64,000 nt of DNA from a bacterium (lineage in GTDB: Bacteria > Zhuqueibacterota > Zhuqueibacteria > Residuimicrobiales > Krinioviventaceae): assembly GCA_963675755.2 (NCBI GenBank), contig CAXXMD010000003.1, positions 832,001 to 896,000 of the forward strand, in the 5' to 3' direction. The notes below the pieces were generated by a model. The model was not told where the DNA came from, did no database searches, and saw nothing but the letters and a program-made list of their open reading frames with translations. Positions 23,833-57,130 of the stretch are shown here, piece by piece. How positions within the stretch are numbered: position 1 is the first letter of the stretch; each line of letters opens with the position of its first letter. A program made the position numbers and the translations under genes.

Positions 23833-25290
23833 TTACAGGGTTGCAAGCAAATCCGTTGCCTGTTTGCGAACATAGGCCCAGTTGTAATTGTTTTCATTGA
23901 AATTAACAGCTTTACTACAATATTCTTTGGCTTTCTCCGGTTCCCCCTTGGCACGATATACCTGAGCAAGACAGCACAAATTACGTGGATTCCTCAAATT
24001 TGCCTGTTCAAGCTCTGCTATTGCATCTTCCAGTCGGTTTTCCTGCATTGCCAGCAATCCCAATAACTGGTGATGGTTCATGAGCTGATTGTTGTTGTTT
24101 TTCATTTTGGCAGTTTCAGCATACTGAACGATTTTTTCTCTGGCCTGTTCATAATATCCTTTCATAATATCTACACGTATTTCATCAAAAAGATATCCCT
24201 GAACCAGATTCTCCTTTTGGTCCTGGCCTATTAATTCGGAATGCTGTACAAGTTCATTGGCTTCATAATATTTTCCCAATGCATCTGTATACATGGCCTT
24301 TTCAAAATAGAGATCACCCAGAACGTTCAAATCTGCTGCAATATCCAGATCATTGTCACCAGCTTTGGACTTTGTTAATCGTAATTCAGCCAAATTTATT
24401 GCTTTATCCAGGTCCTGATTATCAATACAACACCTGATTTTTGCAAAATCTGCAAGTCGCTTTTGCCCTTCATCCGGGGCTTTTTGATACCAGGTATCAA
24501 AGATCTGCATTGCTTTTTCAGGTTCCTGCATCAGGATATAATTGGTACCCATCCCATTATAAGACATTAAAAACCCGGGATCCATTTTAATAGATTTTTG
24601 ATACGCTTCGACAGACTTTTCAAACTTGCCCTGCTTTAGCAAAATCTCTGCATACGAATCCCAGGGATTTGCTTCATCAGGTATCAAATCTGTGTATTTT
24701 TTAATCATCTCTTCTGCCTGATCAAATTTCTCATTGTAAAGGAATGAATACGCCAGTAAATTATAAGCGGGTGCAAAACGAGGATCAATAACAATGGTCT
24801 TTTGGAGTTCACTTATCGCTACATCCCAATCCTGTTGATTCGCATAAATAGCGCCTCTGTTGAAATGCAACCGTTTATCCTGTGGAAACATACTTACCAA
24901 TTGAGCGGCGAGTTTCTTTTCTTTTTGGGTATCTCCATCGAATCCTGCCTGAATATTATCAAGATAGAGTCGCTCGCCTTCTGTTACTTTATCGCGCAAA
25001 GACATGGCTTTATTGAAATGCTTAAAACCAACCATGGTATTGCCGGTTTGAAAGTAACAAAAGCCCAGATTCAGGTGTGCCAGCGCAAAATTTTTATCGA
25101 TTTCAATTGCCTTTTGATATTCCGGAATCGCTTTTTCAAATTTCAAATTATCGTCCAGTACTTGAGCCACAAAGAAATGAGTCAATGCTTGCTTGGAGGA
25201 TGTAGTTACAGGCATTTCAGTTGGTATTTGCGTACAATACACAAACAGCAAAAAAAACATTGTGAACATCCAAATCATTTTGTTTAACAT
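23833..25290 (-). CDS. Tetratricopeptide repeat protein (paralog B)
   Basis: 485 aa, colinear with 14828-16285 (PVTTSSK, DKRL/DKRI, ANPWDSYAEIL, AELEQANxRNPR, AYVRK). Confidence 0.85.
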   Translation of the reverse strand: MLNKMIWMFTMFFLLFVYCTQIPTEMPVTTSSKQALTHFFVAQVLDDNLKFEKAIPEYQKAIEIDKNFALAHLNLGFCYFQTGNTMVGFKHFNKAMSLRDKVTEGERLYLDNIQAGFDGDTQKEKKLAAQLVSMFPQDKRLHFNRGAIYANQQDWDVAISELQKTIVIDPRFAPAYNLLAYSFLYNEKFDQAEEMIKKYTDLIPDEANPWDSYAEILLKQGKFEKSVEAYQKSIKMDPGFLMSYNGMGTNYILMQEPEKAMQIFDTWYQKAPDEGQKRLADFAKIRCCIDNQDLDKAINLAELRLTKSKAGDNDLDIAADLNVLGDLYFEKAMYTDALGKYYEANELVQHSELIGQDQKENLVQGYLFDEIRVDIMKGYYEQAREKIVQYAETAKMKNNNNQLMNHHQLLGLLAMQENRLEDAIAELEQANLRNPRNLCCLAQVYRAKGEPEKAKEYCSKAVNFNENNYNWAYVRKQATDLLATL

Positions 25291-29681: not shown

Positions 29682-30479
29682 TTATTCCATCCAGCCATAA
29701 AACGTGCGGGTATATTTCCACTCTGTACCCGTTTTTTCATATTCTGCCGTACCTCCCGTACTCCACGAATCACGATAGAACAGAATTGCTTTGGGTTCAT
29801 CCTCATTCATAATCACCATTGAAACATGAGGAAAAGAATAATAATGAAAAGACGGCACCCAGTGATTATGATACAGCGCAAATTTGGATTCAAGAAAACC
29901 AACTTTATCCCACACATACTCCCAACTCTGCCATTCAGAGTTATAAAAACTCTCTAAACCGGAATATTCGGATATATAAAAATTAAGCACCTCTTTATAT
30001 CTGTCTGTTAAATAAAGCACATTTTGACCGGTATCCCGAACCTGTGGCCAGAACGGAGCTATTTCGTTAAAGTCCAATGCAGAATATTCAGACGCCGCAC
30101 CTACCCCGTATCGGCTTGAATCTACAACAATGTATACAATCTCATTCTGCAAAACCAGGTATTCAGACTCTAGATACTCTCTTGAAGGTTTGTAAAAATC
30201 ATAAAACAGTTGGTAAATTTCTTTATCCCAATCTGAATTATAATTTGGTTGATTTGCTTCTTGCGCATAAACTTTGTTCCAGGCATCACAAAAGGAATTC
30301 AACTGGTGTTGAGACTGGCTCGTATAAGCCGATCTCAATAAAACGTCTTCGGATTTTACCACATACATGGAATCTATGGGATGGTTGAACGAGATTACAA
30401 ACTCGTCGGGTTGGAATGGAGATTTTGTGGTTTCACAGAACAATAAAAACAGGAAAAATACGGGCAATAATTTTTTCAT
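29682..30479 (-). CDS. Hypothetical (lipo)protein
   Basis: MKKLLPVFFLFLLFC signal, GAGGGG RBS, about 265 aa; no recognised domain. Confidence 0.65.
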   Translation of the reverse strand: MKKLLPVFFLFLLFCETTKSPFQPDEFVISFNHPIDSMYVVKSEDVLLRSAYTSQSQHQLNSFCDAWNKVYAQEANQPNYNSDWDKEIYQLFYDFYKPSREYLESEYLVLQNEIVYIVVDSSRYGVGAASEYSALDFNEIAPFWPQVRDTGQNVLYLTDRYKEVLNFYISEYSGLESFYNSEWQSWEYVWDKVGFLESKFALYHNHWVPSFHYYSFPHVSMVIMNEDEPKAILFYRDSWSTGGTAEYEKTGTEWKYTRTFYGWME

Positions 30480-30596
30480 TTTTCTTCCCCTCATTTAACT
30501 CCTATAGTGTATAGAAAATCTAAATATGATGCAAGAGAAATACAAGATTAATATTAAATTGTGCTGACAAACCTGCTGTTCTCAAAAAACAATACC

Positions 30597-30736
30597 AGAA
30601 CACGAATGACACAAATGATACGAATTTTCACAATTTTTTCAAGGATACTAATTAATGATAATATATCTCTAGGATTAATACTAATACATCAAATACGATT
30701 TATGGAAATCAGTGTCATTCGTTTTTTTCGTGTTCT
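30597..30736. repeat. Imperfect inverted repeat built from CACGAAT-type short repeats
   Basis: AGAACACGAATGACAC...GTGTCATTCG...TTCGTGTTCT. Confidence 0.55.
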
Positions 30737-30860
30737 ATCTCTTCCTTTGACTTTACAACCTTTCCTTCGCAGCATCTTTTATTTTACAAAAGATACCCGA
30801 TTTTATTCTTGAAATAAAACTATGCATTTACTATTTTGATCAAACCCAACAAAAGGATGT

Positions 30861-31958
30861 ATGATTATGAAAAACAGACGTGACTTTATAAAAACCGTAA
30901 CTGCCGCGGTCTGTACTGCCCCCTTTGCGGCTTGCAGCAAAAAAGAGGTTGATCCGCAAACCGTCAAAGGCGAATACGACCGGATATCTGATTTCTGCAA
31001 AAGCCTTGTGCCCATGAACCGGATATTAGAGATGGAAGGCTATTATGTCTGGTGCAATACCCCCATATACGGTCCGGACAACAAGGTGCATGTCTATCTA
31101 TCCCGATGGAAAGAAGAATACGGCATGAGCGGCTGGATCCACAAATGCGAGATTGCGCACGCGGTTGCGGATAAACCGGAAGGTCCCTATGAATATGTGA
31201 GTACCGTTCTCGCTCCCCGTCCGGGTTACTGGGATGCCACCACCTGCCATAATCCGCATATCCAGCATATTGATGGCAAATATTGTCTATTCTACATGGG
31301 CAATTCAAACGGCAAGACCAATACCAAACGAATCGGTCTGGCTACAGCAGACAGCCCCTACGGTCCATGGGAACGTCCGGACAAGCCCCTGCTTGAAGCA
31401 GGTAAACCCGGCAGTTGGGATGATCACTGCACCACCAATCCGGCATTCATCAAACATCCTAATGGACAATACTGGCTCTACTATAAATCCTGGAACACTG
31501 CCGATTATGAAGCGGCAAAAGGTAAACGCATACGCGGCAACCGTCAATATGGTCTGGCCATTGCAGACAATATCTACGGCCCCTATATCAAATACGACAA
31601 GAACCCGGTAATCGATTTCTCATACCTGGGCGAAAACCAACAGCTTGAAGACGCTTATGTGTGGGTGGAAGATAAAAAGATCAAACTCATTGCGCGGGAT
31701 ATGGGATTTTTTGATCATTTTGCGGGATTGTATTTTGAATCGGATGATGGTCTGAAATGGCCGGAACCGGAAATCGCTTTTTTTGGTACGGACCACTATT
31801 TTGAGCAGCCACCCAAACCCAAACACCTGAACCGATACGGACGGCTGGAACGCCCGCAATTGCTGCTCAAAGATGGTAAACCCGATTATCTGTTTACCAC
31901 TTCGCAAGGCGGTAAATATATGACGTCAAGCGGGTATGTATTTAAAATAAAATCCTGA
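30861..31958 (+). CDS. Five-bladed beta-propeller glycoside hydrolase (GH43/GH117-like), Tat lipoprotein
   Basis: NRRDFIK Tat motif plus FAAC lipobox; AVADKPEGPY, TCHNPHI, WDDHCTTNPAF, LEDAYVW, LERPQLL. Confidence 0.8.
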   Translation: MIMKNRRDFIKTVTAAVCTAPFAACSKKEVDPQTVKGEYDRISDFCKSLVPMNRILEMEGYYVWCNTPIYGPDNKVHVYLSRWKEEYGMSGWIHKCEIAHAVADKPEGPYEYVSTVLAPRPGYWDATTCHNPHIQHIDGKYCLFYMGNSNGKTNTKRIGLATADSPYGPWERPDKPLLEAGKPGSWDDHCTTNPAFIKHPNGQYWLYYKSWNTADYEAAKGKRIRGNRQYGLAIADNIYGPYIKYDKNPVIDFSYLGENQQLEDAYVWVEDKKIKLIARDMGFFDHFAGLYFESDDGLKWPEPEIAFFGTDHYFEQPPKPKHLNRYGRLERPQLLLKDGKPDYLFTTSQGGKYMTSSGYVFKIKS

Positions 31959-31973: not shown

Positions 31974-32075
31974 TGATCGCTCAGTAAACCGCAAGTTGGC
32001 AGATGCCGGGTGGAATATTGCGGGACGAATGTCCCTGTATGATATTCCACGATGCAGCAGTCTGCATCGCGATCA
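31974..32075. repeat. 102-nt multi-hairpin element, copy 1 (first arm degenerate)
   Basis: TGATC...GGAATATTGCGGGACGAATGTCCCTGTATGATATTCCACGATGCAGCAGTCTGCATCGCGATCA; same length as copies 2 and 3. Confidence 0.9.
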
Positions 32076-32121
32076 GTAAATAAATACTGGACATTCTTCA
32101 TTTTAATTCCCCAAAGTTATT

Positions 32122-32790
32122 TTAAAATAAATAACCAATAGTAAACTTTATACTATCTATTTTATCTTGAAGACTTACTCCTTCTATATTTTTTGTTGAA
32201 TACTTTGCTTGAATAACATTTATAGACAATGCAATTTGTTTATATGAAAATCGAAAACCTAAATAATAATTTTCTGTAGAACCGATCTTGCTATCTACAA
32301 GTATATAATCGAATTTGTATGGTTTTTCTTCAGGTTGCAGTTGTCTTATTTTTTTAGCTTGATTTGTTGTATTATCCTTTAATGGAATTGAAACACTATA
32401 CCCCATGAAAATATCAAATGAGAAATTTCCTCCAAAATTAAAAGTATATCCGGCTTGTAATGGTAATTCTAAAAGTGAAATATTGATATCAAAATCACCC
32501 GTCATTACAAATGATGCATATTCTGGTGGACTCATTGAAGGCCAAGTCCGTTCTTTGATATCAAATCGTTTATTCTGATAAAATAACCCTGTACCCACAA
32601 AACCGCCAAAGGTTTTCACTGGATAGTAATCCAATCCCAATCCTGTAGAAAATCCAAATTTTGGTGTACATGGATCATTACGAAATGTAGATTGGTTGAC
32701 GCCCAGTTCCACATATTGTACTGTTTTGGCCGTAACGTTTTGTGTAAAAAGCAATACCAGTACCCCAAAAAGAATTTTAAAAGTATTCAT
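32122..32790 (-). CDS. Outer-membrane beta-barrel (porin/PorT-like) protein
   Basis: Signal peptide; alternating aromatic beta strands (ISLLELPLQAGYTF); C-terminal beta-signal TIGYLF; paralog of 33257-33931. Confidence 0.75.
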   Translation of the reverse strand: MNTFKILFGVLVLLFTQNVTAKTVQYVELGVNQSTFRNDPCTPKFGFSTGLGLDYYPVKTFGGFVGTGLFYQNKRFDIKERTWPSMSPPEYASFVMTGDFDINISLLELPLQAGYTFNFGGNFSFDIFMGYSVSIPLKDNTTNQAKKIRQLQPEEKPYKFDYILVDSKIGSTENYYLGFRFSYKQIALSINVIQAKYSTKNIEGVSLQDKIDSIKFTIGYLF

Positions 32791-32832
32791 AGCCAATCCT
32801 TTTAAAAATAAAAGATTTTAGTATAAAAGATT

Positions 32833-33051
32833 GATCCCTACAGCGACCTTATAGCGATTCCCCTTATCGTAATGATATACCCCGTCACACATGAATACCC
32901 CTTGCGAATTATGTAATCAATAATTATTGTGTTTTGTACTTCCCTGTGAAATGCTGTTGTGAAAAATTGTCAATCTGCTTCCCACCCGGTTAACAATTAC
33001 AACAACATTATATATCTTTTAGAGTATAAGTAATTTGATCTCATTTGTAAA
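32833..33051 (-). promoter_or_regulatory. Promoter (TTTACA-N17-TATACT, 33023-33051) and conserved structured 5' leader B
   Basis: The leader shares TAATTCGCAA..TCATGT..GGGGTA..AAGGGGAA.CGC..CGCyGTAG with the leader at 34650-34856. Confidence 0.6.
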
Positions 33052-33097
33052 GCAAAATATTCGCAACAATCGCAAAAAAAACAATCTTAACTTCATT

Positions 33098-33199
33098 TGA
33101 TCACCCGGCAATCCGCCAGCTGACGGATGCCGGGTGGAATATTACGGGACGAATGTCCCTATAAGATATTCCACGATGCAGAAATCTGCATCACGATCA
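33098..33199. repeat. 102-nt multi-hairpin element, copy 2
   Basis: TGATC[ACCCGGCA..TGCCGGGT][GGAATAT..GGGAC GAAT GTCCC..ATATTCC][GATGCAGA AA TCTGCATC]..GATCA; about 40 nt of flank (33200-33240) is also shared with copy 1. Confidence 0.9.
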
Positions 33200-33256
33200 G
33201 TAAATAAATACTGGACATTCTTCATTTTAATTCCCCCAAGTTTTTGATTGTTTTTG

Positions 33257-33931
33257 TTAAAACAGAAATGCAAATGAAATTTTGATACTATCAATTTTAT
33301 CTCCCAAACTTGTATTTACTATATTTTCAGTTGCTGTTCTTGCACTCAAGTAATCTATACTGATAGACATGTTACGATAGGCTATACTTGTGCCGACCAG
33401 GAGATAGTTTGATGACGTTACATGTGTTTCATCCTTTTGCACATAATCAAATTCGAGATTTTCCTTTTCCTCCGGTGCAATTTCTCTACTTCTTTTTGGG
33501 TTCGATGTTGTGTTATCATTGAGAGGTACAGAAATAGCATAACCAGATAAAAAGGTTAAGGTAATGTGTTTTCCCACATCAATGGAATAACCCAACTTGA
33601 TGGGTATTTCAATGAATGTTATATTGATATCAAAATCTTTAATTGATACAAAAGAAGGTGTTGCTGGCGGGGCAGCAGAAGGTAACGTACGGTCCTTGAT
33701 ATCCATTTTTTTATTTTGAATACCCAGACCCCACCCCCAAAACCCCCCGAATTTTTGCCACGGATAGTAATCTATTCCCAATCCCCCGGAAATACCGTAA
33801 CCCGGCGTACAGCTTTCGTTACGGAAGGTTGACCGGTTTATGCCCAGTTCCACATATTTTACAGTTTTGGCCGCAACATTTTGTGTAAAAAGCAATACCA
33901 GTACCCAAAAAGGAATTTTAAAAATATTCAT
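33257..33931 (-). CDS. Outer-membrane beta-barrel (porin/PorT-like) protein
   Basis: Signal peptide nearly identical to 32122-32790 (VLVLLFTQNVxAKTVxYVELG); C-terminal ISFAFLF. Confidence 0.75.
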   Translation of the reverse strand: MNIFKIPFWVLVLLFTQNVAAKTVKYVELGINRSTFRNESCTPGYGISGGLGIDYYPWQKFGGFWGWGLGIQNKKMDIKDRTLPSAAPPATPSFVSIKDFDINITFIEIPIKLGYSIDVGKHITLTFLSGYAISVPLNDNTTSNPKRSREIAPEEKENLEFDYVQKDETHVTSSNYLLVGTSIAYRNMSISIDYLSARTATENIVNTSLGDKIDSIKISFAFLF

Positions 33932-33945
33932 TTCCTCTCCAAAAA

Positions 33946-34611
33946 TTAAAACTCATACCCCAATAAAATTAAATATGAATGCATCTCTTCATCATCAATA
34001 TCAGCTTTTCCCACTGTTTGAATTTCATAGAAATCATACATATAACGAAATTCTAACGAAATATGAAAAACTGACAATCCAAATCCTGAATGCAAACTCC
34101 AACCATTTTCAAATGCCGGATTTCCCATTTCCAGAATATAATCATAATCATATTTCACATTCGACCAATCATCCATATCGTGAATTTCAAAAAGGAATTC
34201 CTGTCTATTAGTTTTTGACATGTAAAATATTCTTGTAGAAAAAGACGGGCCGGCATAAAGGTTAAATCCTATTTTTTTATTTATTTGATAATGGTTTTTT
34301 AATAATAATGGGAATTCTATTACTCCTATGGAATAATTTATATTATGTGAAAAAATAGCCCCAGTATATGTTCCACCTAAAATAACATCATTCATTTCTC
34401 CTTTTTTAGCAGAATACATCAATTCTAAATTAATTGAAAAATATGTATTTACCGGATTATTTTTATAAAAACATAGTGTTGTTCCCGGTTTTGCTTTTGT
34501 TTCAATCGATCTGAACTTTGAAAAATTAGTTCCTATTTTGATTCCATAATTACTATCAGCATATATGGATGATAAAGAGAATAAAATTAAAACAATACAA
34601 AGACGTTTCAT
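33946..34611 (-). CDS. Outer-membrane beta-barrel (porin family) protein
   Basis: Signal peptide, YGIKIGTNFSKF, IEFPLLLK, YAGPSFS, C-terminal LLGYEF; AAGGAG RBS. Confidence 0.78.
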   Translation of the reverse strand: MKRLCIVLILFSLSSIYADSNYGIKIGTNFSKFRSIETKAKPGTTLCFYKNNPVNTYFSINLELMYSAKKGEMNDVILGGTYTGAIFSHNINYSIGVIEFPLLLKNHYQINKKIGFNLYAGPSFSTRIFYMSKTNRQEFLFEIHDMDDWSNVKYDYDYILEMGNPAFENGWSLHSGFGLSVFHISLEFRYMYDFYEIQTVGKADIDDEEMHSYLILLGYEF

Positions 34612-34649
34612 TATTAACTCCTTTTATAAATTGATCTTGAATTTAGCAT

Positions 34650-34856
34650 ACCTCTACGGCGGTCTGAAGGCGTTTCCCCTTGCTTTCATAATGTACCCCA
34701 CAGTACATGAGCATCTCTTTGCGAATTAGATTACAGTATTCACGTGTAGTACGACCCCGTGTAGCGCTGAATTACAAACGAGTTCCCTGATCATTCGTTA
34801 TAATTTACACATCCAGCACTCTTTTTTAGGATAGATAAATTATTCGATCTTGTCAA
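34650..34856 (-). promoter_or_regulatory. Promoter (TTGACA-N17-TATCCT, 34828-34856) and conserved structured 5' leader A
   Basis: About 210-nt leader with hairpins carrying GGG-rich loops; homologous to leader B. Confidence 0.6.
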
Positions 34857-35187
34857 GGGGAATTGTGTTCTTGAGCAATTTTTTATTATATGTCATCGGT
34901 TGTCAGTGAGCTAACCGAGGGGATTGGGACCAGGAGGAGAAAGAGTAAACGGCCCTTGTCCTTCGATACGTCCCGAATCAACATGTCGCGATGCAAAAAA
35001 TCTATGTCGCAATCATAGAAAAAAACAAGATAAATACCAGGCCTTCGATACTTGAATCCATTCACCCTTGGCGAATGGATTCAAACTCAGGCACCGGTTA
35101 TTGATAATAAAGGGAGGCAGTCCGCTTTCAGCGGACAAACGAAATAAATTTCGTTCTACATGTAGATCCCATTTTAATGGGATTGTC
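34739..35187. repeat. 449-bp direct repeat, copy 1
   Basis: Matches 37033-37481 at a constant offset of 2294, about 10 substitutions by eye. Confidence 0.97.
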
Positions 35188-35237
35188 CACCGTTAGGTGG
35201 ACTGTCTCCAAGACAATAAAAACACCCCCCTTAACAT

Positions 35238-35293
35238 ATTGGATAAACGGAGTTTATCCAGCCATGGCGTTCCCAAACAGGAGTTTGGGAACG
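35238..35293. repeat. Two adjacent REP-like palindromes
   Basis: TGGATAAAC-GGA-GTTTATCCA and CGTTCCCAAAC-AGGA-GTTTGGGAACG. Confidence 0.65.
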
Positions 35294-35587
35294 AGAAAAA
35301 TACTATGCTAACAAGCAAAATCGTAAAATAAATCACTTTTTTTTCTTTCATGTCAAGCTCCATATTAAATGTGTAATACTTTAAAGAGAATAAACATTTT
35401 GAAACATTATGTAAATAACAACTTGACAACTGCTATGCCTAAAATCAATTTAAGGTGCCACCATATTCGGTTTTCCAAATCTGCCCTTAATAAACACATA
35501 ATCAAATTCCCCCTTATTATTCAAATTGCTATTTTCAATTTTATTACTTTTATAATAATTTGTTTAATATGGTGTTAATATAATTCA

Positions 35588-36838
35588 TTACCAAAGGACA
35601 CTTACCCCCCTGTTTTTCAAAATGGGTATATATTCATTGATTGAAAGACTGTCAAGTGGATTGTCTGATAGAATAATACTAACCCCCTCTTGTAATCCTG
35701 TATTGTTAACCAGGGGTTCAATATTACTAATGTTATTGTGACTCATTGTAAGAAAATTAAGATTTGTTAATTTTTCTAACGATGAAATATCAGTTATATT
35801 ATTATAATCTAATTGTAATCTTTCAAGCTTTGTAAGTGTTGATAAAGGGGATATGTCAGAAATATGATTATGCTTTAAAAACAACAGTTCAAGCTTAATA
35901 AGGTTTGTTAACGGTTGAATTGTACTTATGTCGCATTTAGATAACCAAAGAAGACGCAAATTTACTAATTGGGTCAATGAGGTTATATCTTTTACTGATG
36001 AACCACTTAGCCATAATTCTTCCAAATGAACGAAATTGGATAGTATGGAAATATCACTGATTTGGAAATTGTACATAATATTGAGATATGTTAATTTTAC
36101 TAAATTCCGTAAAGGAGAGATATTCGTTATTTCGTTTGAATCCAGGTTTAGATAACGCAATTCAGTTAGGTCAGCTAATGGGGTAACATCTCTGATTTTA
36201 TAATTCTGACTGAAATTAACATGCTGCAAGTTTATCAAATTTGATAGTGGTGATAAATCTTCAATTTGCTGTAATACCATTGACAGATATTCCAGATTAT
36301 CACATTGTTCAACGCCATCTAATGTTGTGACGTCCTGAGTTACAATATCCCAAGATTTTAATGAATCCAGAGAGGCAAGTTCCGTATTTGATATTTTCAG
36401 CTTTGGGCTTTTTATCTGGAGGCGAGCGTGTAATTCCAACGCAGGATCTTTGAATGATACTTGTTCTCTTGGCAATACCGTTACGACCACTTGATCGGTA
36501 TTGCTTTGTTCACTCTCATTTGTAATTGTTAAAGTGTATTTATATGTCCCTTCTTTAAGAAAACCAAGCGTCTGGACCAACTTGTCTTTACCTTCTCCAG
36601 AAAATATAAATGATTCATTCGGGTTGTCAATATCTGCTGACCATTCACACCAGTAACTGTCCCCCGGTCCAGGATTCGATGACGTGGCATCTAATGTCAC
36701 ATACCCCCCCACAATTGTAGTTTGGTCAGGTCCGGCATTGGCAATCAAAGAATCGGTCGGTTCTGATGCGTTTTTATTACAACTGATGGTAACTAAAATC
36801 AAACAAATCAAAATACCCCAAAATGTGTTTTTTATCAT
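35588..36838 (-). CDS. Leucine-rich-repeat (internalin-like) lipoprotein with N-terminal PKD/Ig-like domain
   Basis: Lipobox TISC; IANAGPDQT..VTLDATSS..EGTYKYTLTIT; about nine 22-aa repeats of type LxxLxLxxNxIxDISPLxxLxx. Confidence 0.9.
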   Translation of the reverse strand: MIKNTFWGILICLILVTISCNKNASEPTDSLIANAGPDQTTIVGGYVTLDATSSNPGPGDSYWCEWSADIDNPNESFIFSGEGKDKLVQTLGFLKEGTYKYTLTITNESEQSNTDQVVVTVLPREQVSFKDPALELHARLQIKSPKLKISNTELASLDSLKSWDIVTQDVTTLDGVEQCDNLEYLSMVLQQIEDLSPLSNLINLQHVNFSQNYKIRDVTPLADLTELRYLNLDSNEITNISPLRNLVKLTYLNIMYNFQISDISILSNFVHLEELWLSGSSVKDITSLTQLVNLRLLWLSKCDISTIQPLTNLIKLELLFLKHNHISDISPLSTLTKLERLQLDYNNITDISSLEKLTNLNFLTMSHNNISNIEPLVNNTGLQEGVSIILSDNPLDSLSINEYIPILKNRGVSVLW

Positions 36839-37032
36839 TACGTTTCCTTTTCTTTATTAAGATCATATTTATTAAAAAATTAATCAATAGGAAAAACTCT
36901 AGTTTAAAATTGAGTTAATATCTCCACAACAGTTTACTCATAGAGTTGAACATTTAAACTAATTCAGATAGCGCCAGATATCAAGTCGCTTTTATAGCTT
37001 CTGTAATGACAAATAATATAGAATAAATATAT

Positions 37033-37481
37033 TTCACGTGTAGTACGACCCCGTGTAGCGCTGAATTACAAACGAGTTCCCTCATCATTCGTTATAATTT
37101 ACACATCCAGCACTCTTTTTTAGGATAGATAAATTATTCGATCTTGTCAAGGGGAATTGTGTTCTTGAGCAATTTTTTGTTATATGTCATCGGTTGTCAG
37201 TGAGCTAACCGAGGGGATTGGGACCAGGAGGAGAAAGAGTAAACGGCCCTTGTCCTTCGATACGTCCCGAATCAACATGTCGCGATGCAAAAAATCTATG
37301 TCGCAATCATAGAAAAAAACAAGATTGATACCGGACCTTCGATACTTGAATCCATTCACCCTTGGCGAATGGATTCAAACTCAGGCACCGGTTATTGATA
37401 ATAAAGGGAGGCAGTCCGCTTGCAGCAGACAAACGAAATAAATTTCGTTCTACTTGTAGGTCCCATTTTAATGGGATTGTC
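37033..37481. repeat. 449-bp direct repeat, copy 2 (contains TTGACA-N17-TATCCT on the minus strand, 37122-37150)
   Basis: See copy 1; the promoter here faces the LRR gene. Confidence 0.97.
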
Positions 37482-37559
37482 AACTGCCAGGAGGACTGGA
37501 GAGTGTGCCAAAACGTCTAGCATAAAAAATATTATCCAGCATTGCGTTTATATCAGTAT

Positions 37560-37661
37560 TGATCACCCGGCAATCCGCCAGCCGGTGGATGCCGGGTCGA
37601 ATATTACGGGACGAATGTCCCTGTATGATATTCCACGATGCAGAAATCTGCATCGCGATCA
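37560..37661. repeat. 102-nt multi-hairpin element, copy 3
   Basis: TGATCACCCGGCAATCCGCCAGCCGGTGGATGCCGGGT...CGATGCAGAAATCTGCATCGCGATCA; flanks differ from copies 1 and 2. Confidence 0.9.
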
Positions 37662-37933
37662 GTTTATTTATAACCCACCTGAGGTGGGTAAACGAAAAAA
37701 AATTCGTTCTACAGCTAATCGGGCCTATTTTTTATCCTATCATCCTTGAATCTTAAAAATCTTAATTCAGACAATTCTCCCGGGATTTTTTAAATGTATG
37801 AAACCCGGGCCACAGGCTCTGGCTACGGACTAATTCTTTTTACCTGACAAGCAAAGCAATGAACAGAACGGTCCAATTTTACTGTTTCAATAATGTTTAT
37901 AAATTAGTATTTTATAAGAAAACCGGAGATTCT

Positions 37934-39178
37934 ATGAGCTTATCAGAACCGTTAAAAAAACCATATATTTTTGAATTAACAGGTGTTGTACAGCATTACA
38001 GTTGGGGCGGCACCCGCTATATCCCCAATTTGATTAACATTGAAAACAATGATCAAAAATCTTTTGCCGAATACTGGCTGGGCGCACACGACAAGGCCCC
38101 TTCAACAGCAAGCGTTCATGACAATCAGGCGTTATTGAATGAACTGATCAAAAATTCACCGGATATGCTGCTTGGCAAAGAAACCCTTGATCGTTTTGGC
38201 CCAAGTTTGCCGTATCTGTTCAAAGTATTAGACGCAAGAGACATGCTCTCTATTCAGGTGCACCCCTCAAAGGATCAGGCAGAAGCTGGTTTTGAACGTG
38301 AAAACAAGGCAGGTATAGCGCTGAATGCACCAAACCGCAATTACAAAGACAACAACCACAAACCGGAAGTGCATGTAGCCCTGACCGATTTTTGGATGCT
38401 GCACAGCTTTCGCGAAGCCCAGGAGATTGATCATCTTTTAGAAAAGACCGAAGAATTTGCATCACTGTTGCCCGTTTTTAAAGAGGGTGGCATTGAGGCG
38501 CTGTATAGTCATATCATGCAGCTGCCCCAAACAGAAATAGATTCAATCCTGAATCCCATGTTCAACCGCTTGACACCCAAATATTACAATCGTGAATTGA
38601 ACAAAGAGAATCCCGATTACTGGGCGGTTCTGTCTGCGATCAAGTTCCCCATTGAAGGCGGTCATCGTGACCGGGGAATTTTCTCCATTTATCTGTTTAA
38701 TTTAATCCACCTCAAACCCGGCGAAGCCACATACCAGGCAGCGGGAGTACCGCACGCTTATCTGCAAGGTACCAATATGGAGCTGATGGCAAACTCGGAC
38801 AATGTGCTGCGCGGAGGGTTAACTCCCAAACATGTAGATGTGCCGGAACTGCTGAAAACCCTGAATTTTAAAGGCCAGCACCCAGATATCATCAGGGGAG
38901 AAAACATTTCCAAGGTTGAATCTGTCTACGCTACGCCGGCACCCGATTTTGAGCTGTCCCGTGTTTGTATTGATCGTGATAATCGATATAAAAGCCAGGA
39001 ACAACACGGCGCAGATATATGGATCGTTATGGAAGGTGATACAGATGTTTGCGGCAAAACCAATGTGATCAACCGCAAACGGGGCGAGGCATTTTTTGTC
39101 CCTGCGGACCTGCCCTATTCCGTAAAAACAGAGTCAACCGCACAGCTCTATAAAGCAACCGTACCTATGAATCAATAA
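37934..39178 (+). CDS. manA: Mannose-6-phosphate isomerase, class I
   Basis: QHYSWGG, AEYWLGAH, LPYLFKVL, LSIQVHP, NHKPE, HAYLQG, ELMANSDNVLRGGLTPKHVD; start set after a GGAG site. Confidence 0.95.
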   Translation: MSLSEPLKKPYIFELTGVVQHYSWGGTRYIPNLINIENNDQKSFAEYWLGAHDKAPSTASVHDNQALLNELIKNSPDMLLGKETLDRFGPSLPYLFKVLDARDMLSIQVHPSKDQAEAGFERENKAGIALNAPNRNYKDNNHKPEVHVALTDFWMLHSFREAQEIDHLLEKTEEFASLLPVFKEGGIEALYSHIMQLPQTEIDSILNPMFNRLTPKYYNRELNKENPDYWAVLSAIKFPIEGGHRDRGIFSIYLFNLIHLKPGEATYQAAGVPHAYLQGTNMELMANSDNVLRGGLTPKHVDVPELLKTLNFKGQHPDIIRGENISKVESVYATPAPDFELSRVCIDRDNRYKSQEQHGADIWIVMEGDTDVCGKTNVINRKRGEAFFVPADLPYSVKTESTAQLYKATVPMNQ

Positions 39179-40523: not shown

Positions 40524-41684
40524 ATGAAATCCAGGATTTTTTTATTCAGCGTTATCACTCTTTGTATTCTTGCATTAACCGGCTGTTCCCCCAAATCAGA
40601 GATTACCCCGCCACCCGGTGTGGTAGTGACCTATTCTCCACCATCCTCCGGGATTTATACCGGTTCTCCCAGCCTGGTGATTCTGCCGGACGGCAGTTAT
40701 CTGGCCTCGCACGACGAGTATGGCCCCAATTCAACAGAGCATACTGAGGCTATTACAAGAATTTTCAAATCGTCAGACAAGGGTGAAACCTGGAAACAGA
40801 TTTCTACTCTTAAATATCAGTACTGGTCCAATCTGTTTGTGCACAAGGGCGCCCTCTATATTCTGGGTACCCGCAATCAAACGGGTTTTATGTCAATCCG
40901 ACGTTCTGATGATGGCGGTGTAACCTGGACTGAGCCGGTTGACGACAAATCCGGTCTTTTGTACAGTGATAGTAACTATCATTGCGCGCCCATGCCGGTA
41001 ATCGAACATAACGGCAGACTGTATCGTGCTTTTGAAGAACGCAGAGACCTCAACGGCTGGGGTGAAAGCTTTCTCGCTTTTGTTATATCCGCACCGGTAG
41101 ATGCCGATCTGCTTAATGCCGCATCCTGGACCAGTACAGAGCGCATTCCCTTTAATCCTGAATGGCCCGGCAACGGTTATCTTGAAGGCAACGCTGTATT
41201 CACTCCTGAGGGAAACCTGTTAAACATCCTTCGTCATGATTCTAAAAATGGCGGTTCTGCTACTGTCATCCACATTAATCCGGATGGTTCTTCCCAATTC
41301 GATCCTGCTAAAAATATAATCTCCTTTCCCGGCGGTAGTAAAAAATTCGTCATTCGCTTTGATCCGGAATCCGGATATTACTGGTCATTGTCCAATTGGA
41401 TCCAGGAGAAATATCGTACCCCAACCCCTTCAATGGTACGCAACACACAAACGCTTATTCGCTCAAAGGACCTGCTCAACTGGGAGATCCGGTCCATCAT
41501 TCTGGAACACCCAAACGTTGAAATTACCGGTTTTCAATATGTAGACTGGCAATTCGAGGGAAACGACATCATATTCCTGTCGCGCACAGCATGGGATGAC
41601 GGCAGAGGCACACCCACCAATTGTCATGACGCCAATTATATAACTTTTCACCGTATTACAAACTTTCGGGATACAGTGGATTAA
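40524..41684 (+). CDS. BNR/Asp-box beta-propeller (sialidase-superfamily) lipoprotein, copy 1
   Basis: Lipobox LTGC; Asp-boxes SSDKGETW, RSDDGGVTW, RSKDLLNW. Confidence 0.82.
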   Translation: MKSRIFLFSVITLCILALTGCSPKSEITPPPGVVVTYSPPSSGIYTGSPSLVILPDGSYLASHDEYGPNSTEHTEAITRIFKSSDKGETWKQISTLKYQYWSNLFVHKGALYILGTRNQTGFMSIRRSDDGGVTWTEPVDDKSGLLYSDSNYHCAPMPVIEHNGRLYRAFEERRDLNGWGESFLAFVISAPVDADLLNAASWTSTERIPFNPEWPGNGYLEGNAVFTPEGNLLNILRHDSKNGGSATVIHINPDGSSQFDPAKNIISFPGGSKKFVIRFDPESGYYWSLSNWIQEKYRTPTPSMVRNTQTLIRSKDLLNWEIRSIILEHPNVEITGFQYVDWQFEGNDIIFLSRTAWDDGRGTPTNCHDANYITFHRITNFRDTVD

Positions 41685-41739
41685 TTAATCAATGCACAAA
41701 TAAACTAACAATCATAAACTACCAAAGGAAGCCAGCTCT

Positions 41740-42918
41740 ATGTCAAAATCCGGAATTGTAGTATGGGTATCCATTATTCTCTGTTCACTCTTGTTAATTA
41801 CCGGCTGCGCACCCAAAGATCCGTATACGCCCCCTCCCGGTGTTGTGATTACCTATCACGCACCCTCATCGGGATTGTATGTGGCCTCTCCCAGCATTGC
41901 AATTCTACCGGACGGCAGCTATGTAGCCTGTCATGATTTCTACGGGCCCAATTCAAAAGAGGTTAACGATTCAAAAACACGGATTTTTAAATCGACAAAC
42001 ATGGGTAAAAGCTGGAAGCAAATTTCAAAATTGAAAAATCAATACTATTCTGATCTTTTTGTACACAAGGGCGTTCTCTATCTCCTGGGTGTCACAAGCC
42101 CGAACAGTAATATTACTATCCGTCGCTCTGATGACGGTGGTGTAACCTGGACCGAACCGGTTGACAACAAAACCGGTTTAATCGTTACAGAAGGCCATTA
42201 TCAATGCGGCGCAATGCCTATTACCGAGCACAACGGCAGATTGTATCGCGCGTTTGAAGATACCGAAAGAGGAAAAGACTGGGGCGAGTGCTTTATCTCT
42301 TTTACCATTTCAGCTCCTGTAGATGCAGACCTGCTGGATGCCGCGTCATGGACCGAATCAGAACATATTCCCTGGAATGAAGAATGGCCCGGCGGCGGAT
42401 TTCTTGAAGGTAATGTCCTGACAACCCCGGACGGTAATCTGGTTAACGTTCTGCGCCACGACAGTAAGAACGGCGGTACGGCCGCGATCATCCATATTCA
42501 ACCGGACGGGAAATCCGAGTTTAATCCCCCTGACGACATTATCGAATTCCCCGGTGGATGCAAGAAATTCACAATCCGGTTTGATCCCGAATCCGGATAT
42601 TACTGGTCGCTCACAAACTGGATTCAGGAAAAGTACAGAAACTCAAATCCTGAACGTACCCGCAATACCCAGGCACTCATCCGCTCCAAAGATCTGAAAA
42701 ACTGGGAAATTCGAGCGGTCATTTTAGAACACCCCACTTTCAAGATAACCGGGTTCCAGTATGCAGATTGGCAGTTTGATGGTAAAGATATCATTTTTGT
42801 GTCGCGTACGGCCTGGGATGATGGCAAAGAAACACCCCCCGGCTGTCATGATGCCAATTACATTACCTTTCATCGTATTAAAAACTTTAGAAAAAGAGTA
42901 GATAAATTAACCAATTAA
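41740..42918 (+). CDS. BNR/Asp-box beta-propeller lipoprotein, copy 2
   Basis: Lipobox ITGC; colinear paralog of copy 1. Confidence 0.82.
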   Translation: MSKSGIVVWVSIILCSLLLITGCAPKDPYTPPPGVVITYHAPSSGLYVASPSIAILPDGSYVACHDFYGPNSKEVNDSKTRIFKSTNMGKSWKQISKLKNQYYSDLFVHKGVLYLLGVTSPNSNITIRRSDDGGVTWTEPVDNKTGLIVTEGHYQCGAMPITEHNGRLYRAFEDTERGKDWGECFISFTISAPVDADLLDAASWTESEHIPWNEEWPGGGFLEGNVLTTPDGNLVNVLRHDSKNGGTAAIIHIQPDGKSEFNPPDDIIEFPGGCKKFTIRFDPESGYYWSLTNWIQEKYRNSNPERTRNTQALIRSKDLKNWEIRAVILEHPTFKITGFQYADWQFDGKDIIFVSRTAWDDGKETPPGCHDANYITFHRIKNFRKRVDKLTN

Positions 42919-42938
42919 AAAACACCAGAGGTAGCTCA

Positions 42939-44105
42939 ATGTTAAAATCCAGAATTGTAATGTGGGGATTCATCGTTCTCGGTTCAATTTTACTATTATC
43001 CGGTTGTGACCCAAAAGAAGCTTACACACCTCCACCCGGTGTAGTGGTAACCTATTCTGCCCCGTCTTCAGGATTGTATATCGGCTCTCCCAGTCTGGCG
43101 ATTCTTCCGGATGGCAGCTATGTGGCCTCGCACGATTTTTTTGGCCCCAATTCCAAAGAAGCCGATGATTCAAGGAGCCGTATTTTCAAATCTACAGACA
43201 AGGGTAAAACCTGGAAACAGATTGCCACGCTTGAAAAACAATTCTGGTCAAATTTGTTTGTGCACAGGGGTGCGCTATACATTTTTGGCACCAATAATCA
43301 GCATGGACAAATGATCATCCGGCGCTCTGACGATGGCGGCGTGACCTGGACCGAGCCGGTAGATGACAAATCCGGTCTGCTGTACAATGACGGTCATTAT
43401 CACTGCGCTCCCATGCCCGTTACCGAGCAAAACGGCAGATTGTATCGCTCTTTTGAAGAAACCGACAAGTCTAAAAAATGGGGCGAGTGTTTTATCTCGT
43501 TTACTATTTCAGCACCGGTAGATGCAGACCTGTTGGACGCATCATCCTGGACCGAGTCGGAACGTATTCCCTGGAACACGGAATGGCCCGGTGGCGGATT
43601 TTTGGAAGGTAACGCGATATTTACCCCTGACGGCGAGCTGGTTAACATTCTGCGTCACGACACTGAAACCGGCGGCACGGCTGCGGTCATCCACATTCAG
43701 CCGGACGGCAGCTCTGAATTTAATCCCGCTTCTGATATTATCGAATTTCCCGGTGGATGCAAGAAATTCTCAATCCGGTTTGATCCCGAAACCGGATATT
43801 ACTGGTCCTTGTCCAACTGGATACAGGAAAAATACCGCAACCCGAATCCTGAACGCACACGCAATACCCAGGCGCTCATTCGCTCCAAAGACCTGAAAAA
43901 CTGGGAAATCCGTGCGGTCATTTTAGAGCATCCCAATTTCAAGATCACCGGATTCCAGTACACCGACTGGCATTTTGAAGGTGACGATATCATCTTTGTA
44001 TCCCGAACAGCCTGGGATGACGGTAAAGAAACACCTCCCGGTTGTCACGATGCCAACTATATCACCTTTCATCGTATCGAGAATTTCAGGGAAAAGGTGG
44101 ATTAG
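42939..44105 (+). CDS. BNR/Asp-box beta-propeller lipoprotein, copy 3
   Basis: Lipobox LSGC; colinear paralog of copies 1 and 2. Confidence 0.82.
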   Translation: MLKSRIVMWGFIVLGSILLLSGCDPKEAYTPPPGVVVTYSAPSSGLYIGSPSLAILPDGSYVASHDFFGPNSKEADDSRSRIFKSTDKGKTWKQIATLEKQFWSNLFVHRGALYIFGTNNQHGQMIIRRSDDGGVTWTEPVDDKSGLLYNDGHYHCAPMPVTEQNGRLYRSFEETDKSKKWGECFISFTISAPVDADLLDASSWTESERIPWNTEWPGGGFLEGNAIFTPDGELVNILRHDTETGGTAAVIHIQPDGSSEFNPASDIIEFPGGCKKFSIRFDPETGYYWSLSNWIQEKYRNPNPERTRNTQALIRSKDLKNWEIRAVILEHPNFKITGFQYTDWHFEGDDIIFVSRTAWDDGKETPPGCHDANYITFHRIENFREKVD

Positions 44106-51720: not shown

Positions 51721-52701
51721 ATGCAAAAGGTAAAATGGGGAATTTTAGGGACCGGCAATATTGCAAAAAAATTCGCAGAATGCTTAAAATATGTTGATAA
51801 CGCAGAATTATGGGGTGTGGGTTCACGATTCCAGGAATCCGCTGACAATTTTATGACCGATCTCGATATCCCCAAACGGTATTCCAGCTACCAGGCATTG
51901 ATTGACGACCCGGATGTTCAAATCATCTATGTTTCTACACTCAACCACCTGCACTATGAAAACACCCTCGCCTGCCTGAATGCAGGTAAAGCCGTATTGT
52001 GTGAAAAGCCTTTTACCATTAACGCCAAAGAAGCAAAAGAGCTGATAGATCTTTCCAGATCCAAAAATCTCTTTTTGATGCAGGGATTATGGTCCAGATA
52101 TTTTCCCGTTTATGTACAGGTACGTGAATGGCTGCAAAAAGGCACCATTGGAGAGGTGGAAATGCTTACCGTTTCTCATGGATTTAGAGGAGATTTTAAT
52201 CCCAACAGCCGATTGTTTAATCCTGAATATGGTGGCGGAGCCCTGCTGGATGTGGGCATCTATACCCACTCGCTTGCGTCAATGGTACTGGGGCCTGTAA
52301 AATCTGTTCAGGCCAAAGCAGAAATTGGCCCGTCCGGTGTGGATGAGCTTCTTGCTACAATTCTTCACCACGAGAATGGCGGCATTTCCGTTCTGCAATC
52401 GTCTTTCCGTACAAATATGATCAACCAGGCAATTATCATGGGATCGAAAGGCTACATCCGTATTGCCCCGGCGTACTGGCGACCCAGAAAAGTATATCTG
52501 TGCATGAACGGTGAAGAAGAGCAGGAATTCAACATGCAGATTGATTCGCATGGCTTCCAGTTTGAAGCACAGGAAGCACAGGACTGTATGCTTGCGGGTA
52601 AATTAGAAAGCGACATCATGTCCAACGATGAAACATTAGCACTCATGGAATTGTTAGACACTATACGTGATAAAATCGGATTGACATATCCGATGGAATA
52701 G
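51721..52701 (+). CDS. Gfo/Idh/MocA oxidoreductase (copy 1)
   Basis: WGILGTGNIA, VLCEKPF, GGGALLDVGIY. Confidence 0.92.
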   Translation: MQKVKWGILGTGNIAKKFAECLKYVDNAELWGVGSRFQESADNFMTDLDIPKRYSSYQALIDDPDVQIIYVSTLNHLHYENTLACLNAGKAVLCEKPFTINAKEAKELIDLSRSKNLFLMQGLWSRYFPVYVQVREWLQKGTIGEVEMLTVSHGFRGDFNPNSRLFNPEYGGGALLDVGIYTHSLASMVLGPVKSVQAKAEIGPSGVDELLATILHHENGGISVLQSSFRTNMINQAIIMGSKGYIRIAPAYWRPRKVYLCMNGEEEQEFNMQIDSHGFQFEAQEAQDCMLAGKLESDIMSNDETLALMELLDTIRDKIGLTYPME

Positions 52702-52709
52702 GAACGGGT

Positions 52710-52804
52710 CCTCCGGGTGACTGTTGAAGAGTCTATACAATCTCCTTGTCGGAGAGTTTTTAGTTTTTTCAGGATTATGACCTTTTTCAACGATCACCGG
52801 GAGG
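52710..52804. repeat. Long imperfect hairpin between the tandem oxidoreductases
   Basis: CCTCCGGGTGACTGTTGAAGAGTC...GACCTTTTTCAACGATCACCGGGAGG. Confidence 0.6.
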
Positions 52805-52861
52805 TGGATAAGCGCTGTTTATCAATTACAAAAATTAAAAACTCATTTATCCGGAGGTTAT

Positions 52862-53842
52862 ATGCGTAATGTAAATTGGGGTATCATTGGTACCGGTAAT
52901 ATTGCTCATCAGTTCGCCAAAGGGCTGCAACATGCCAATGGTGCGGTCTTGCTGGGTGTAGGTTCCAGGTCACAGCAATCGGCTGATAGCTTTGCCAATG
53001 AATTTGATATTCCCCGGAGCTATGCCACATATCAGGCGCTTATAGACGATCCGGAAATCGATATCGTTTACATATCCACACCCAACAACCTGCATTACGA
53101 AAACACCAAAGCCTGCCTGAACGCCGGTAAAGCGGTACTGTGCGAAAAACCTTTTACCATCAATCTTGAACAGGCCAAAGAACTGGTACAACTTGCAAGG
53201 GACAAGAATCTTTTTTTGATGGAAGCCTTGTGGTCGCGATTCTTTCCTGCATATAAACAAATGCAGGATTGGTTAAAAGCCGGCACCATCGGGAATGTTG
53301 AAATGTTGTCCGCCAATTTTGGATTTTACGCGGATTATGAAGCCGACAGCCGGTTATACGATCCCGAGTTGGGTGGTGGCTCGCTTTTGGATGTGGGCAT
53401 TTACACCCTTGCACTGGCTTTACATGTATTGGGGCCTGTCAAAAGCATTCTGGCGCAGGCTGATCTGAGCAGCTCCGGTGTGGATGAGAACCTTGCCGTT
53501 ATTCTGCAGCACCAAAACAGTGGCACCTCTGTGCTGCAATCGTCATTTCGCACCAACCTGGTGAATCATGCGGCCATCAATGGTACCAAAGGGTACATCC
53601 GTATTCCGGATCCCTTTTGGCAGCCGGGTACACTTAATCTGTGCATGAACGATCAGCAAGAAGAAAAATTTGACTTCCCTTTTCAAAGTGAGGGCTATCA
53701 ATTTGAAGCAGAAGCGGCACAGCAATGCCTGCTTGAAAGAAAAATCGAAAGCGACATTGTACCGCACAAGGACACACTCGAGATTATGGAACTCATGGAT
53801 GCAATCCGTAAAAAAATCGGATTAAAATTTCCGATGGAATAG
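52862..53842 (+). CDS. Gfo/Idh/MocA oxidoreductase (copy 2, tandem paralog)
   Basis: Same length (326 aa) and motifs as copy 1. Confidence 0.92.
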   Translation: MRNVNWGIIGTGNIAHQFAKGLQHANGAVLLGVGSRSQQSADSFANEFDIPRSYATYQALIDDPEIDIVYISTPNNLHYENTKACLNAGKAVLCEKPFTINLEQAKELVQLARDKNLFLMEALWSRFFPAYKQMQDWLKAGTIGNVEMLSANFGFYADYEADSRLYDPELGGGSLLDVGIYTLALALHVLGPVKSILAQADLSSSGVDENLAVILQHQNSGTSVLQSSFRTNLVNHAAINGTKGYIRIPDPFWQPGTLNLCMNDQQEEKFDFPFQSEGYQFEAEAAQQCLLERKIESDIVPHKDTLEIMELMDAIRKKIGLKFPME

Positions 53843-53964
53843 AAACTGAACACCTCCCGGAGGTCCGGGACCTTGTTGTAAGGATTTATAAATTCATATA
53901 ATTATATTTGATTTAAAAAGGTTTTTTAATACATTTATTTTGAATATAATGGGAGTATAGAAAT

Positions 53965-54255
53965 ATGACCCGCTCTGAAATTCTCAAAATTTTAAAAAAA
54001 TATAAAAAAGATAATTCAAAAAAGTATGGAATTAACAATCTAGGGCTTTTTGGTTCTTATGCCAGAAATTTAGCAGATAATAAAAGTGATATTGATATAA
54101 TGATTGAAACCCGGGAACCCGACATGTATCAATTGGTCCACATTAAAGAAGAACTGGAAACATTATTTAACAAATCTGTTGATATTGTACGAATCCGGGA
54201 AAATATGAATCCCTATTTGAAAAAAAGAATAGACAAAGATGGCCAGTATGTATGA
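53965..54255 (+). CDS. Minimal nucleotidyltransferase antitoxin (MntA-like)
   Basis: LFGSYAR...SDIDI (GSx10DxD), 96 aa, overlaps the HEPN gene. Confidence 0.92.
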   Translation: MTRSEILKILKKYKKDNSKKYGINNLGLFGSYARNLADNKSDIDIMIETREPDMYQLVHIKEELETLFNKSVDIVRIRENMNPYLKKRIDKDGQYV

Positions 54256-54628
54256 CAAAACACTAGTCTGTGATATTCTGTATCAAATATTTGATGCTAC
54301 TCAAAAAGTGAGTCAACGTTTCGAGCCAATAAAAACAGTATCTGATTTTACAGACTCTTCTATGGGTATGGAAAAACTGGATTCAATTTGCATGTTACTA
54401 ATAGCGATTGGTGAAAGTTTAAAAAACATTGATAAAATAACAGACGAAACGCTATTAAAACAATTTCCTGAAATTGATTGGAAAGGCGCCAAAGGGCTGA
54501 GAGACATAATATCACATCATTACTTTGATATCGATGCAGAAGAAATTTTCTGGGTATGCGACAAACACATTCCACCGCTTGCAAAAACAATTGAAAAAAT
54601 AATATCGCACTTGAATTGTAAAAACTAA
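54248..54628 (+). CDS. HepT-like HEPN ribonuclease toxin (DUF86)
   Basis: IGESLKNI, PEIDWK, RDIISHHY (Rx4HxY). Confidence 0.92.
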   Translation: MYDKTLVCDILYQIFDATQKVSQRFEPIKTVSDFTDSSMGMEKLDSICMLLIAIGESLKNIDKITDETLLKQFPEIDWKGAKGLRDIISHHYFDIDAEEIFWVCDKHIPPLAKTIEKIISHLNCKN

Positions 54629-54678
54629 CAAACATAACCTCCGGGGATTGCATAGACTGGCATAAAGGGAGAGCAAGA

Positions 54679-57097: not shown

Positions 57098-57130
57098 AAC
57101 CTCCCGGAGGTCAGGGACCTCCGGGAGGTT
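57098..57130. repeat. Perfect 15-bp palindromic REP-like element
   Basis: AACCTCCCGGAGGTC-AGG-GACCTCCGGGAGGTT; partial relatives at 53852-53873 and 54637-54650. Confidence 0.8.

Follow-up and report, generated by a model that had tools for sequence, protein, structure and literature searches.

What makes a set of outer-membrane protein genes vary at a single chromosomal site, and are the folded repeats lying between those genes the agents of that variation? The question is posed by a locus in a 64-kb stretch of contig CAXXMD010000003.1 (assembly GCA_963675755.2, family Krinioviventaceae; the window hereafter), in which three copies of a palindromic element of 102 nt, here called E, lie among three beta-barrel genes and a leucine-rich repeat (LRR) lipoprotein gene. 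This island is flanked by a GH43-like glycoside hydrolase gene and manA (Table 1). A first-pass annotation of the window had read it as a non-integron array of self-promoted surface-protein cassettes, delimited by E and gained, duplicated or lost there. Comparison of the window with about 100 kb of one related genome, OY843751.1, supports this cassette interpretation in part: the array is real and actively varying, with a repeat family not described before and a promoter-leader head common to its units, and most likely varies without a dedicated recombinase.

Content of the GH43-manA interval in two genomes

The related genome was located by one scan of the GTDB species genomes with a pattern for the conserved end of E, which returned 12 stretches. 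Seven exact matches lay at five loci of OY843751.1 (L005, L007, L008, L009 and L012); diverged copies of E would escape this exact-pattern count, and none of the matches came from the genome of the window itself. Five of the 12 stretches were rejected as chance, being isolated 26-nt matches in five unrelated records (hidden Markov model E-value 0.03 or worse; L002 unreported).

OY843751.1 is a complete chromosome of 6.5 Mb, syntenic with the window, and its flanking core genes are 93-94% identical to those of the window. Between GH43 and manA it carries, in order, an E, a barrel (3'), a head, an E variant, barrel 3, a second head, the long repeat and a different hairpin pile; the LRR gene and barrels 1 and 2 are absent from that interval. 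A second array, at L009, holds a barrel 94% identical to barrel 2, another barrel, the head twice, E fragments, the insertion sequence (IS) IS1182 and a frameshifted REP-associated tyrosine transposase gene (RAYT; REP, repetitive extragenic palindrome). With other content at the same site and a second barrel array that shares its modules, the locus is truly variable, as the first-pass annotation had supposed. That annotation had also held that single E copies scattered in either orientation, together with constant island content, would point to ordinary duplication plus REP insertions; the scatter and the mixed orientation were found, whereas the content proved variable.

The description of co-oriented, AT-rich surface genes stands as well. 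The barrels and the LRR gene all lie on the minus strand, and GC content is 0.28-0.37 in island genes versus 0.41 in the whole window and 0.45-0.48 in GH43 and manA. Hairpins occur at 2.0 per kb in the island and at 0.4 and 0.7 per kb in the remaining window. A Pfam scan of the 72 open reading frames (ORFs) of the window, considering the best five families per protein, yielded no transposase or recombinase family and no integron integrase, in line with the earlier statement that the window encodes no recombinase.

Table 1 Features of the locus and its flanks (window coordinates)
Feature	Coordinates	Strand	Description
GH43-like glycoside hydrolase	30861..31958	+	Conserved left flank of the variable locus; Pfam PF04616; 1031/1098 nt identical in OY843751.1
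E1	31974..32075		102-nt multibranched palindromic repeat; OY843751.1 has an E at the same junction
Barrel 1 3' tail	32076..32121	-	Ribosome-binding site (RBS) and ~8 codons of the next gene, cut at the E end; common to the barrel 2 tail
Barrel 1	32122..32790	-	PF13568 outer-membrane beta-barrel (Pfam)
Promoter-like site and leader B	32791..33051	-	TTTACA-17-TATACT; diverged homologue of leader A
E2	33098..33199		102-nt repeat, direct copy
Barrel 2	33257..33931	-	PF13568, mosaic; first 66 nt and tail of barrel 1 type, body nearly identical to the L009 barrel
Barrel 3	33946..34611	-	PF13568; nearly identical to the OY843751.1 copy except for a 64-nt patch
Promoter-like site and leader A	34612..34856	-	TTGACA-17-TATCCT; constant 5' head common to unrelated barrels
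466-bp repeat, copy R1	34739..35204		Promoter, half leader, decayed E, hairpin pile
Probable decayed E-family copy	34893..35015		Within R1
Two GTAG-tagged REP-like palindromes	35138..35183		Back to back; same classes at L005, L008, L009 and L012
Gene stub	35193..35351	-	~19 signal-peptide-like codons from start 35351, running into a hairpin of another family (35268-35295)
PKD-LRR lipoprotein	35588..36838	-	Pfam; missing from this site in OY843751.1
466-bp repeat, copy R2	37033..37498		Leader cut at 37033; decayed E at ~37187-37309
E3	37560..37661		102-nt repeat; without counterpart at this point in OY843751.1, where the left flank consists of other repeats
manA (phosphomannose isomerase)	37859..39178	+	Conserved right flank; Pfam PF20511; 1229/1320 nt identical in OY843751.1

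A homogenised head before unrelated barrels

Each unit has its own promoter, called by -35/-10 consensus only, so that the earlier view of the units as self-promoted is upheld. What repeats is better described as a variable gene behind a constant head, the latter made up of E-family sequence, a promoter and a leader of ~190 nt. The head measures ~250 nt, and the shared sequence stops ~40-70 nt before the start codon. In seven pairs of units with leader A the promoter-leader sequence is 85-91% identical, while the barrels behind it are only 19-29% identical; the copying of the head must thus be much younger than the divergence of the genes. Leader A is itself homologous to leader B (59% over 195 nt).

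The 449-bp promoter repeat of the first-pass annotation survives as a repeat, now 466 bp long at 96.8% identity, but not as a simple promoter repeat: it is a mosaic in which the promoter and the leader's 5' half are joined to a probable decayed E and two GTAG-tagged palindromes. The 3' 50 nt of this probable decayed E are ~70% identical to the E family. Against three of five family members at most 1 of 500 shuffles reaches its score; against the other two, 20 and 62 of 500 do.

The leader may be a cis-regulatory RNA without an Rfam match. Leader A folds no better than its shuffles (z +0.85) and leader B gives z -2.3; in the leaders at 34612-34822 and 32791-33016 only the first stem, near the predicted start site, carries several paired changes, which come from one diverged copy. 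A conserved leader peptide was rejected: in a count by eye, the aligned small ORFs of the two leaders show differences at all three codon positions.

Mosaic genes and the position of exchange points

Barrels 1 and 2 are paralogues at 53% identity with a tail in common, and barrel 2 is a mosaic. At informative sites its first 66 nt resemble barrel 1 (11 versus 2) and the following part resembles the L009 barrel (105 versus 3), before the gene switches to the tail of barrel 1 inside the RBS. Barrel 3 differs from its OY843751.1 orthologue at 23 sites, 22 of them within a single 64-nt patch, and 21 of the 23 match a paralogue. Over its first 501 nt no third position differs between the genomes (0/167), against 61/366 in GH43 and 69/440 in manA; near-identical barrels in two otherwise diverged genomes argue for recent transfer between lineages whose flanking core genes differ at ~16% of third positions. 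For barrel 1 no close relative from OY843751.1 was found among 16 matches.

The LRR gene joins its upstream sequence in mid-leader. Its best relatives are 55% identical, and the names on its relatives are KSB1, WOR-3, Calditrichaeota, Neomarinimicrobiota, Melioribacteraceae and Bacteroidetes. A hybrid E at L009 aligns as a ~300-nt deletion of a block resembling R2-E3, each end of the deletion falling within a hairpin. Three types of repeat mark the ends of gene stubs (E, a GTAG REP and a third hairpin family), and truncation is therefore not specific to E. Several exchange points can be mapped, not to E ends but to the ends of coding sequences, RBS tails, the leader or hairpin interiors, which suggests homologous recombination, gene conversion and hairpin-associated deletion as the probable mechanisms.

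Element E is a dispersed palindromic repeat

The three direct, folded 102-nt copies reported earlier are confirmed. Pairwise, E1-E3 share 93, 91 and 98 of 108 aligned bases (84-91%), and none of 200 shuffles is as stable as the native sequence on either strand (z -4.5 to -7.1). The predicted fold is multibranched on both strands, with an outer stem and three inner hairpins. No further full copy was found in the window. Across copies the ends of E are fixed while the interior varies (102-150 nt overall), and there is a hairpin at each end. Each end consists of TGAT plus a hairpin, the two end hairpins being unlike in sequence. The terminal inverted repeat (TIR) spans 7 bp and is perfect in four of the seven full-length copies, with one or two mismatches in the rest.

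Target duplications of at least 4 nt are absent in nine E copies, the best being 2-3 nt in three of them. With the box motif taken as the first-pass annotation gave it (RYYYAAC/GTTRRRY), both attC boxes occur within 30 nt of the ends in none of nine copies, which bears out the claim that E lacks attC ends; one copy has a single box of this type, outside the element. A scan for hairpins with the GTAG (not GTGG) form of the GT[AG]G tag at 0-2 nt on their 5' side found no tag in E and located GTAG palindromes beside E, within the 466-bp repeat and around RAYT.

E is not specific to the island. All five loci in OY843751.1 lie between genes, amid piles of other hairpin families; three of them (L007, L008 and L012) have neither a barrel nor the leader, and partial copies occur in the opposite orientation. 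Together with exchange points away from its ends, this dispersal speaks against the proposal that E delimits the island and serves as its recombination site. Nor did the earlier suggestion to look for empty sites bear fruit, as comparison of the window with OY843751.1 gave no clean empty site: the E1 site is filled in both genomes, and the E3 site has no E in OY843751.1, with its left flank replaced there. The three single-copy loci adjoin accessory-type genes, namely a ResIII helicase gene, a nitroreductase gene with IS256, and a PemK/Panacea pair.

Two arrangements at these loci are recorded here in their own right. At L008:10001-14025 a full and a partial E, inverted relative to each other, bracket ~3.9 kb with the nitroreductase gene, IS256 and two genes without assigned function. 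At L012:10073-12099 an E abuts a four-gene operon that includes the PemK-like and Panacea-domain genes, arranged as E1 is beside GH43. Separately, a mini-hairpin of ~18 nt lies within loops of different repeat families (window 33111-33128 and 37573-37590; L008:11038-11071; L012:9809-9841) and looks as if it inserts into other hairpins; a literature search on its six-residue reading found no description.

Three further ideas about E were rejected. As an intrinsic terminator it offers one weak site versus 4.0 expected by chance; a replication-strand bias is contradicted by nearby copies in opposite orientations; and derivation of the left half of E1 from the L009 stub is indistinguishable from the alternative (30 versus 28 of 37 matches). 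Rfam returned nothing near gathering scores in the island or in L005, L009 and L012. In plasmid and phage collections E, the long repeat and the leader were unmatched except for two short matches (E-value 0.6-0.7), and no match covered the element. A literature search, with most subscription journals outside its coverage, found no published description of E or of the locus.

Ordinary recombination and dedicated movement

We consider it probable that this is a repeat-associated hypervariable surface-gene locus shaped by ordinary recombination, with no need of a dedicated recombinase. Its units would be paralogous transcription units, each with the constant head before a PF13568 barrel or some other exported gene, and E would be a low-copy, lineage-specific, non-autonomous palindromic repeat, similar to REPs or to miniature inverted-repeat transposable elements (MITEs), that also sits at other loci in piles of unrelated hairpin repeats. 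General recombination, gene conversion and unequal exchange, both within one genome and with DNA from relatives, may find their homology anchors in the head, the conserved gene ends and the blocks of E plus tail. Hairpin-associated deletions would leave the gene stubs behind, selection for surface diversity would keep the variants, and E may in addition act on transcript 3' ends.

Several observations weigh against this account, and the comparison covers no more than two genomes. One and the same E end adjoins three different sequences in the arrays, each within 2 nt of it, which homology alone does not predict. The other E end is preceded by TTGAT in six of seven independent sites (P ~0.006 at 32% T, post hoc), the last four letters being readable equally as E's own inverted repeat. 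A stop codon is faced within 9-206 nt by 10 of 11 copies with the abutted end intact (E3 is the exception, and the copies are not all independent). The RAYT gene lies ~370 nt from the second array. Finally, in all seven leader copies the -35 box is preceded, at a distance of 32-60 nt, by E-family sequence, a count that is biased since the loci were fetched by the E pattern and leaders without E are invisible to it.

TTGAT at one end and three sequences at the other are a hint at an HUH-type mover, TTGAT having been reported, in the portion of 10.1101/2023.11.20.567912 drawn on here, as a transposon-adjacent motif of IS605 beside left ends. In a dedicated non-integron cassette system, E would be the folded single-stranded DNA substrate of an HUH (Y1) enzyme encoded elsewhere, such as the RAYT by the second array or an IS200/IS605 TnpA, and cuts at its ends would capture, delete or move the neighbouring gene unit. 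Such a system would fit the fixed ends around a variable interior, the terminal hairpins and the lack of target duplication, as well as the TTGAT sites, the three flanks and the accessory-type genes beside all three single E copies. We nevertheless hold it to be unlikely. A co-occurring RAYT, which the first-pass annotation had suggested looking for, does exist beside the second array (NF047646; L009:12654-13134, minus strand), but it is flanked by its own GTAG palindromes, a repeat type unlike the untagged E. One of these palindromes cuts the gene after the barrel at L009. The RAYT gene is in two frames in the assembly; the frameshift coincides with a homopolymer and could stem from an error in the assembly.

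In the pairing rule of IS608 and ISDra2, a guide tetranucleotide at the hairpin foot pairs with the cleavage site. On this rule, two of seven E copies have the expected guide words at the right hairpin foot or 1 nt away from it, and the words are missing from the left foot, an inconsistency that counts against the system, as do the remaining crossovers away from E ends and the lack of a clean empty site. An HUH-driven origin of E itself, with some end-directed deletions, is possible. Its fullest form is doubtful: E as a single-strand substrate with a new end code, TTGAT/ATCA, making up with the promoter and leader a self-promoting slot, in which surface genes of relatives that lack promoters of their own are captured as far as the E end. 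If this were true, it would give an uncultured lineage of FCB type an integron-like way of shuffling genes that needs no tyrosine recombinase. Were an HUH enzyme found to cut E ends and carry neighbouring genes, REP/RAYT-type systems would gain a direct role in building gene arrays, which is an open question there.

Less likely still, in our estimate, the block of E, promoter and leader would be a mobile promoter element (REP2/CREN- or Correia-like) that spreads before surface genes and co-regulates them. The same ~250-nt head does stand before barrel 3, barrel 3' and the L009 barrels, with its 5' half before the LRR gene, and E-family sequence precedes every one of the seven heads. All seven heads, however, belong to two arrays, no remainder of an interrupted gene follows any of them and target duplications are lacking. 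Moreover, barrel 1 has a full-length leader, diverged to 59%, and its proximal 5' untranslated region (UTR) resembles the one of its relative at L009, which points to an old family leader that was later homogenised. Ordinary tandem duplication of barrels beside passive REP-like repeats with no part in the variation has the least to recommend it, for although barrels 1 and 2 are paralogues with a common tail and hairpin piles flank accessory genes elsewhere (for example the MNT-HEPN pair at 53965-54628), the two genomes differ in content, two distant arrays have material in common, and the similarity among heads far exceeds that among the genes they precede.

Neighbouring genes and repeats

Next to the island, an unannotated lipoprotein-like gene is intact in the window (29682-30494) and a shorter ORF in OY843751.1 (L005:12546-12932). 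Upstream of GH43 lies a degenerate inverted repeat (30600-30740) with its two arms ~85 nt apart; repeats like this are familiar from GxxExxY-type genes. Three BNR/sialidase-like lipoprotein paralogues stand in tandem at 40524-44105 (67-78% nucleotide identity), and the OY843751.1 site has two. Other paralogue pairs in the window comprise two signal peptidases, two TPR proteins and two Gfo/Idh/MocA oxidoreductases (7349-8905; 14828-16285 / 23833-25290; 51721-53842). Tails resembling those of the type IX secretion system (T9SS) are present among the window proteins (Pfam scan); with the names on the LRR relatives, they hint at a bacterium of FCB type.

The nucleotidyltransferase-HepT toxin-antitoxin pair named above as MNT-HEPN occupies an AT-rich patch (53850-54660), bracketed by pieces of a hairpin family also seen at 57098-57130 and beside E at L008, and is followed by a WapI-like immunity gene (55203-55670). 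In the second array, IS1182 (1600 bp; L009:13448-14956) lies within a hairpin repeat and has an AGGA target duplication; the uninterrupted form of this hairpin is the one into which the gene stub of the window runs (35268-35295).

Comparison with known systems

The attC site of an integron folds into one long imperfect hairpin. The locus is not an integron array: E has a multibranched fold and no attC boxes, each unit shares a promoter and leader, exchange points lie away from the repeat and no integrase was found among the 72 ORFs of the window. The likeness to integron cassettes, and to clusters of attC sites lacking integron-integrases (CALIN), is that of tandem variable genes each followed by a folded repeat, as these are described in the part of PMC8618304 used here.

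E resembles REPs and REPINs, as far as the relevant part of PMC3116915 describes them, in being extragenic, dispersed and palindromic, with a clover-like fold, no target duplication and a tendency to cluster with other palindromes. Unlike them it has two differing end hairpins and lacks the GT[AG]G tag of the definition (taken from the pertinent part of 10.1101/279083); seven exact-pattern matches in 6.5 Mb are not a high copy number, and E is not the repeat that flanks RAYT. True GTAG REPs and a RAYT (NF047646) do occur in the same arrays as E. The word TGATC is not in the main text of a survey of GTAG/CGTC repeats (PMC3733652).

With MITEs and non-autonomous derivatives of IS200/IS605, E shares its shortness, the lack of a transposase, fixed ends with terminal hairpins, TTGAT at one end and a 7-bp TIR (characters as given in parts of PMC3184786 and 10.1101/2023.11.20.567912). 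It departs from MITEs in having no target duplication, and from IS200/IS605 derivatives in that the guide-sequence rule holds inconsistently.

The head works like the neisserial REP2 repeats and the IR-A and IR-B repeats of Borrelia, which carry a promoter and 5' UTR before different surface-related genes (according to the section of PMC3184786 concerned). It, too, places a promoter, here by consensus only, and a 5' UTR before different genes, but it is longer (~250 nt), has no RBS or start codon, lies behind a separate hairpin repeat and occurs at only two arrays.

As a whole the locus appears to work most like the neisserial intergenic mosaic element (NIME) arrays, built of dRS3 and RS repeats. 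These are syntenic, dynamic piles of short repeats, with insertion sequences inside them, beside variable and mostly surface or exported genes; recombination with foreign DNA has been proposed for them, with or without a specific recombinase, and the passages of PMC1797815 consulted for these points state that such arrays had not been observed outside Neisseria. Membership of either group is denied by the dRS3 motif, which has no match in the window, and by the shared block, which stops before the RBS. The repeats are also unrelated to those of Neisseria, low in copy number and longer, and whole gene units differ here as well as alleles. The points of likeness are mosaic repeat piles at syntenic sites, arrays that differ between genomes, surface genes alongside and insertion sequences within. 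With this locus come a repeat family and a common 5' leader that are not in Rfam, and it would represent diversification of outer-membrane barrels anchored on repeats, in the manner of NIME and REP2, in an uncultured lineage distant from Neisseria.

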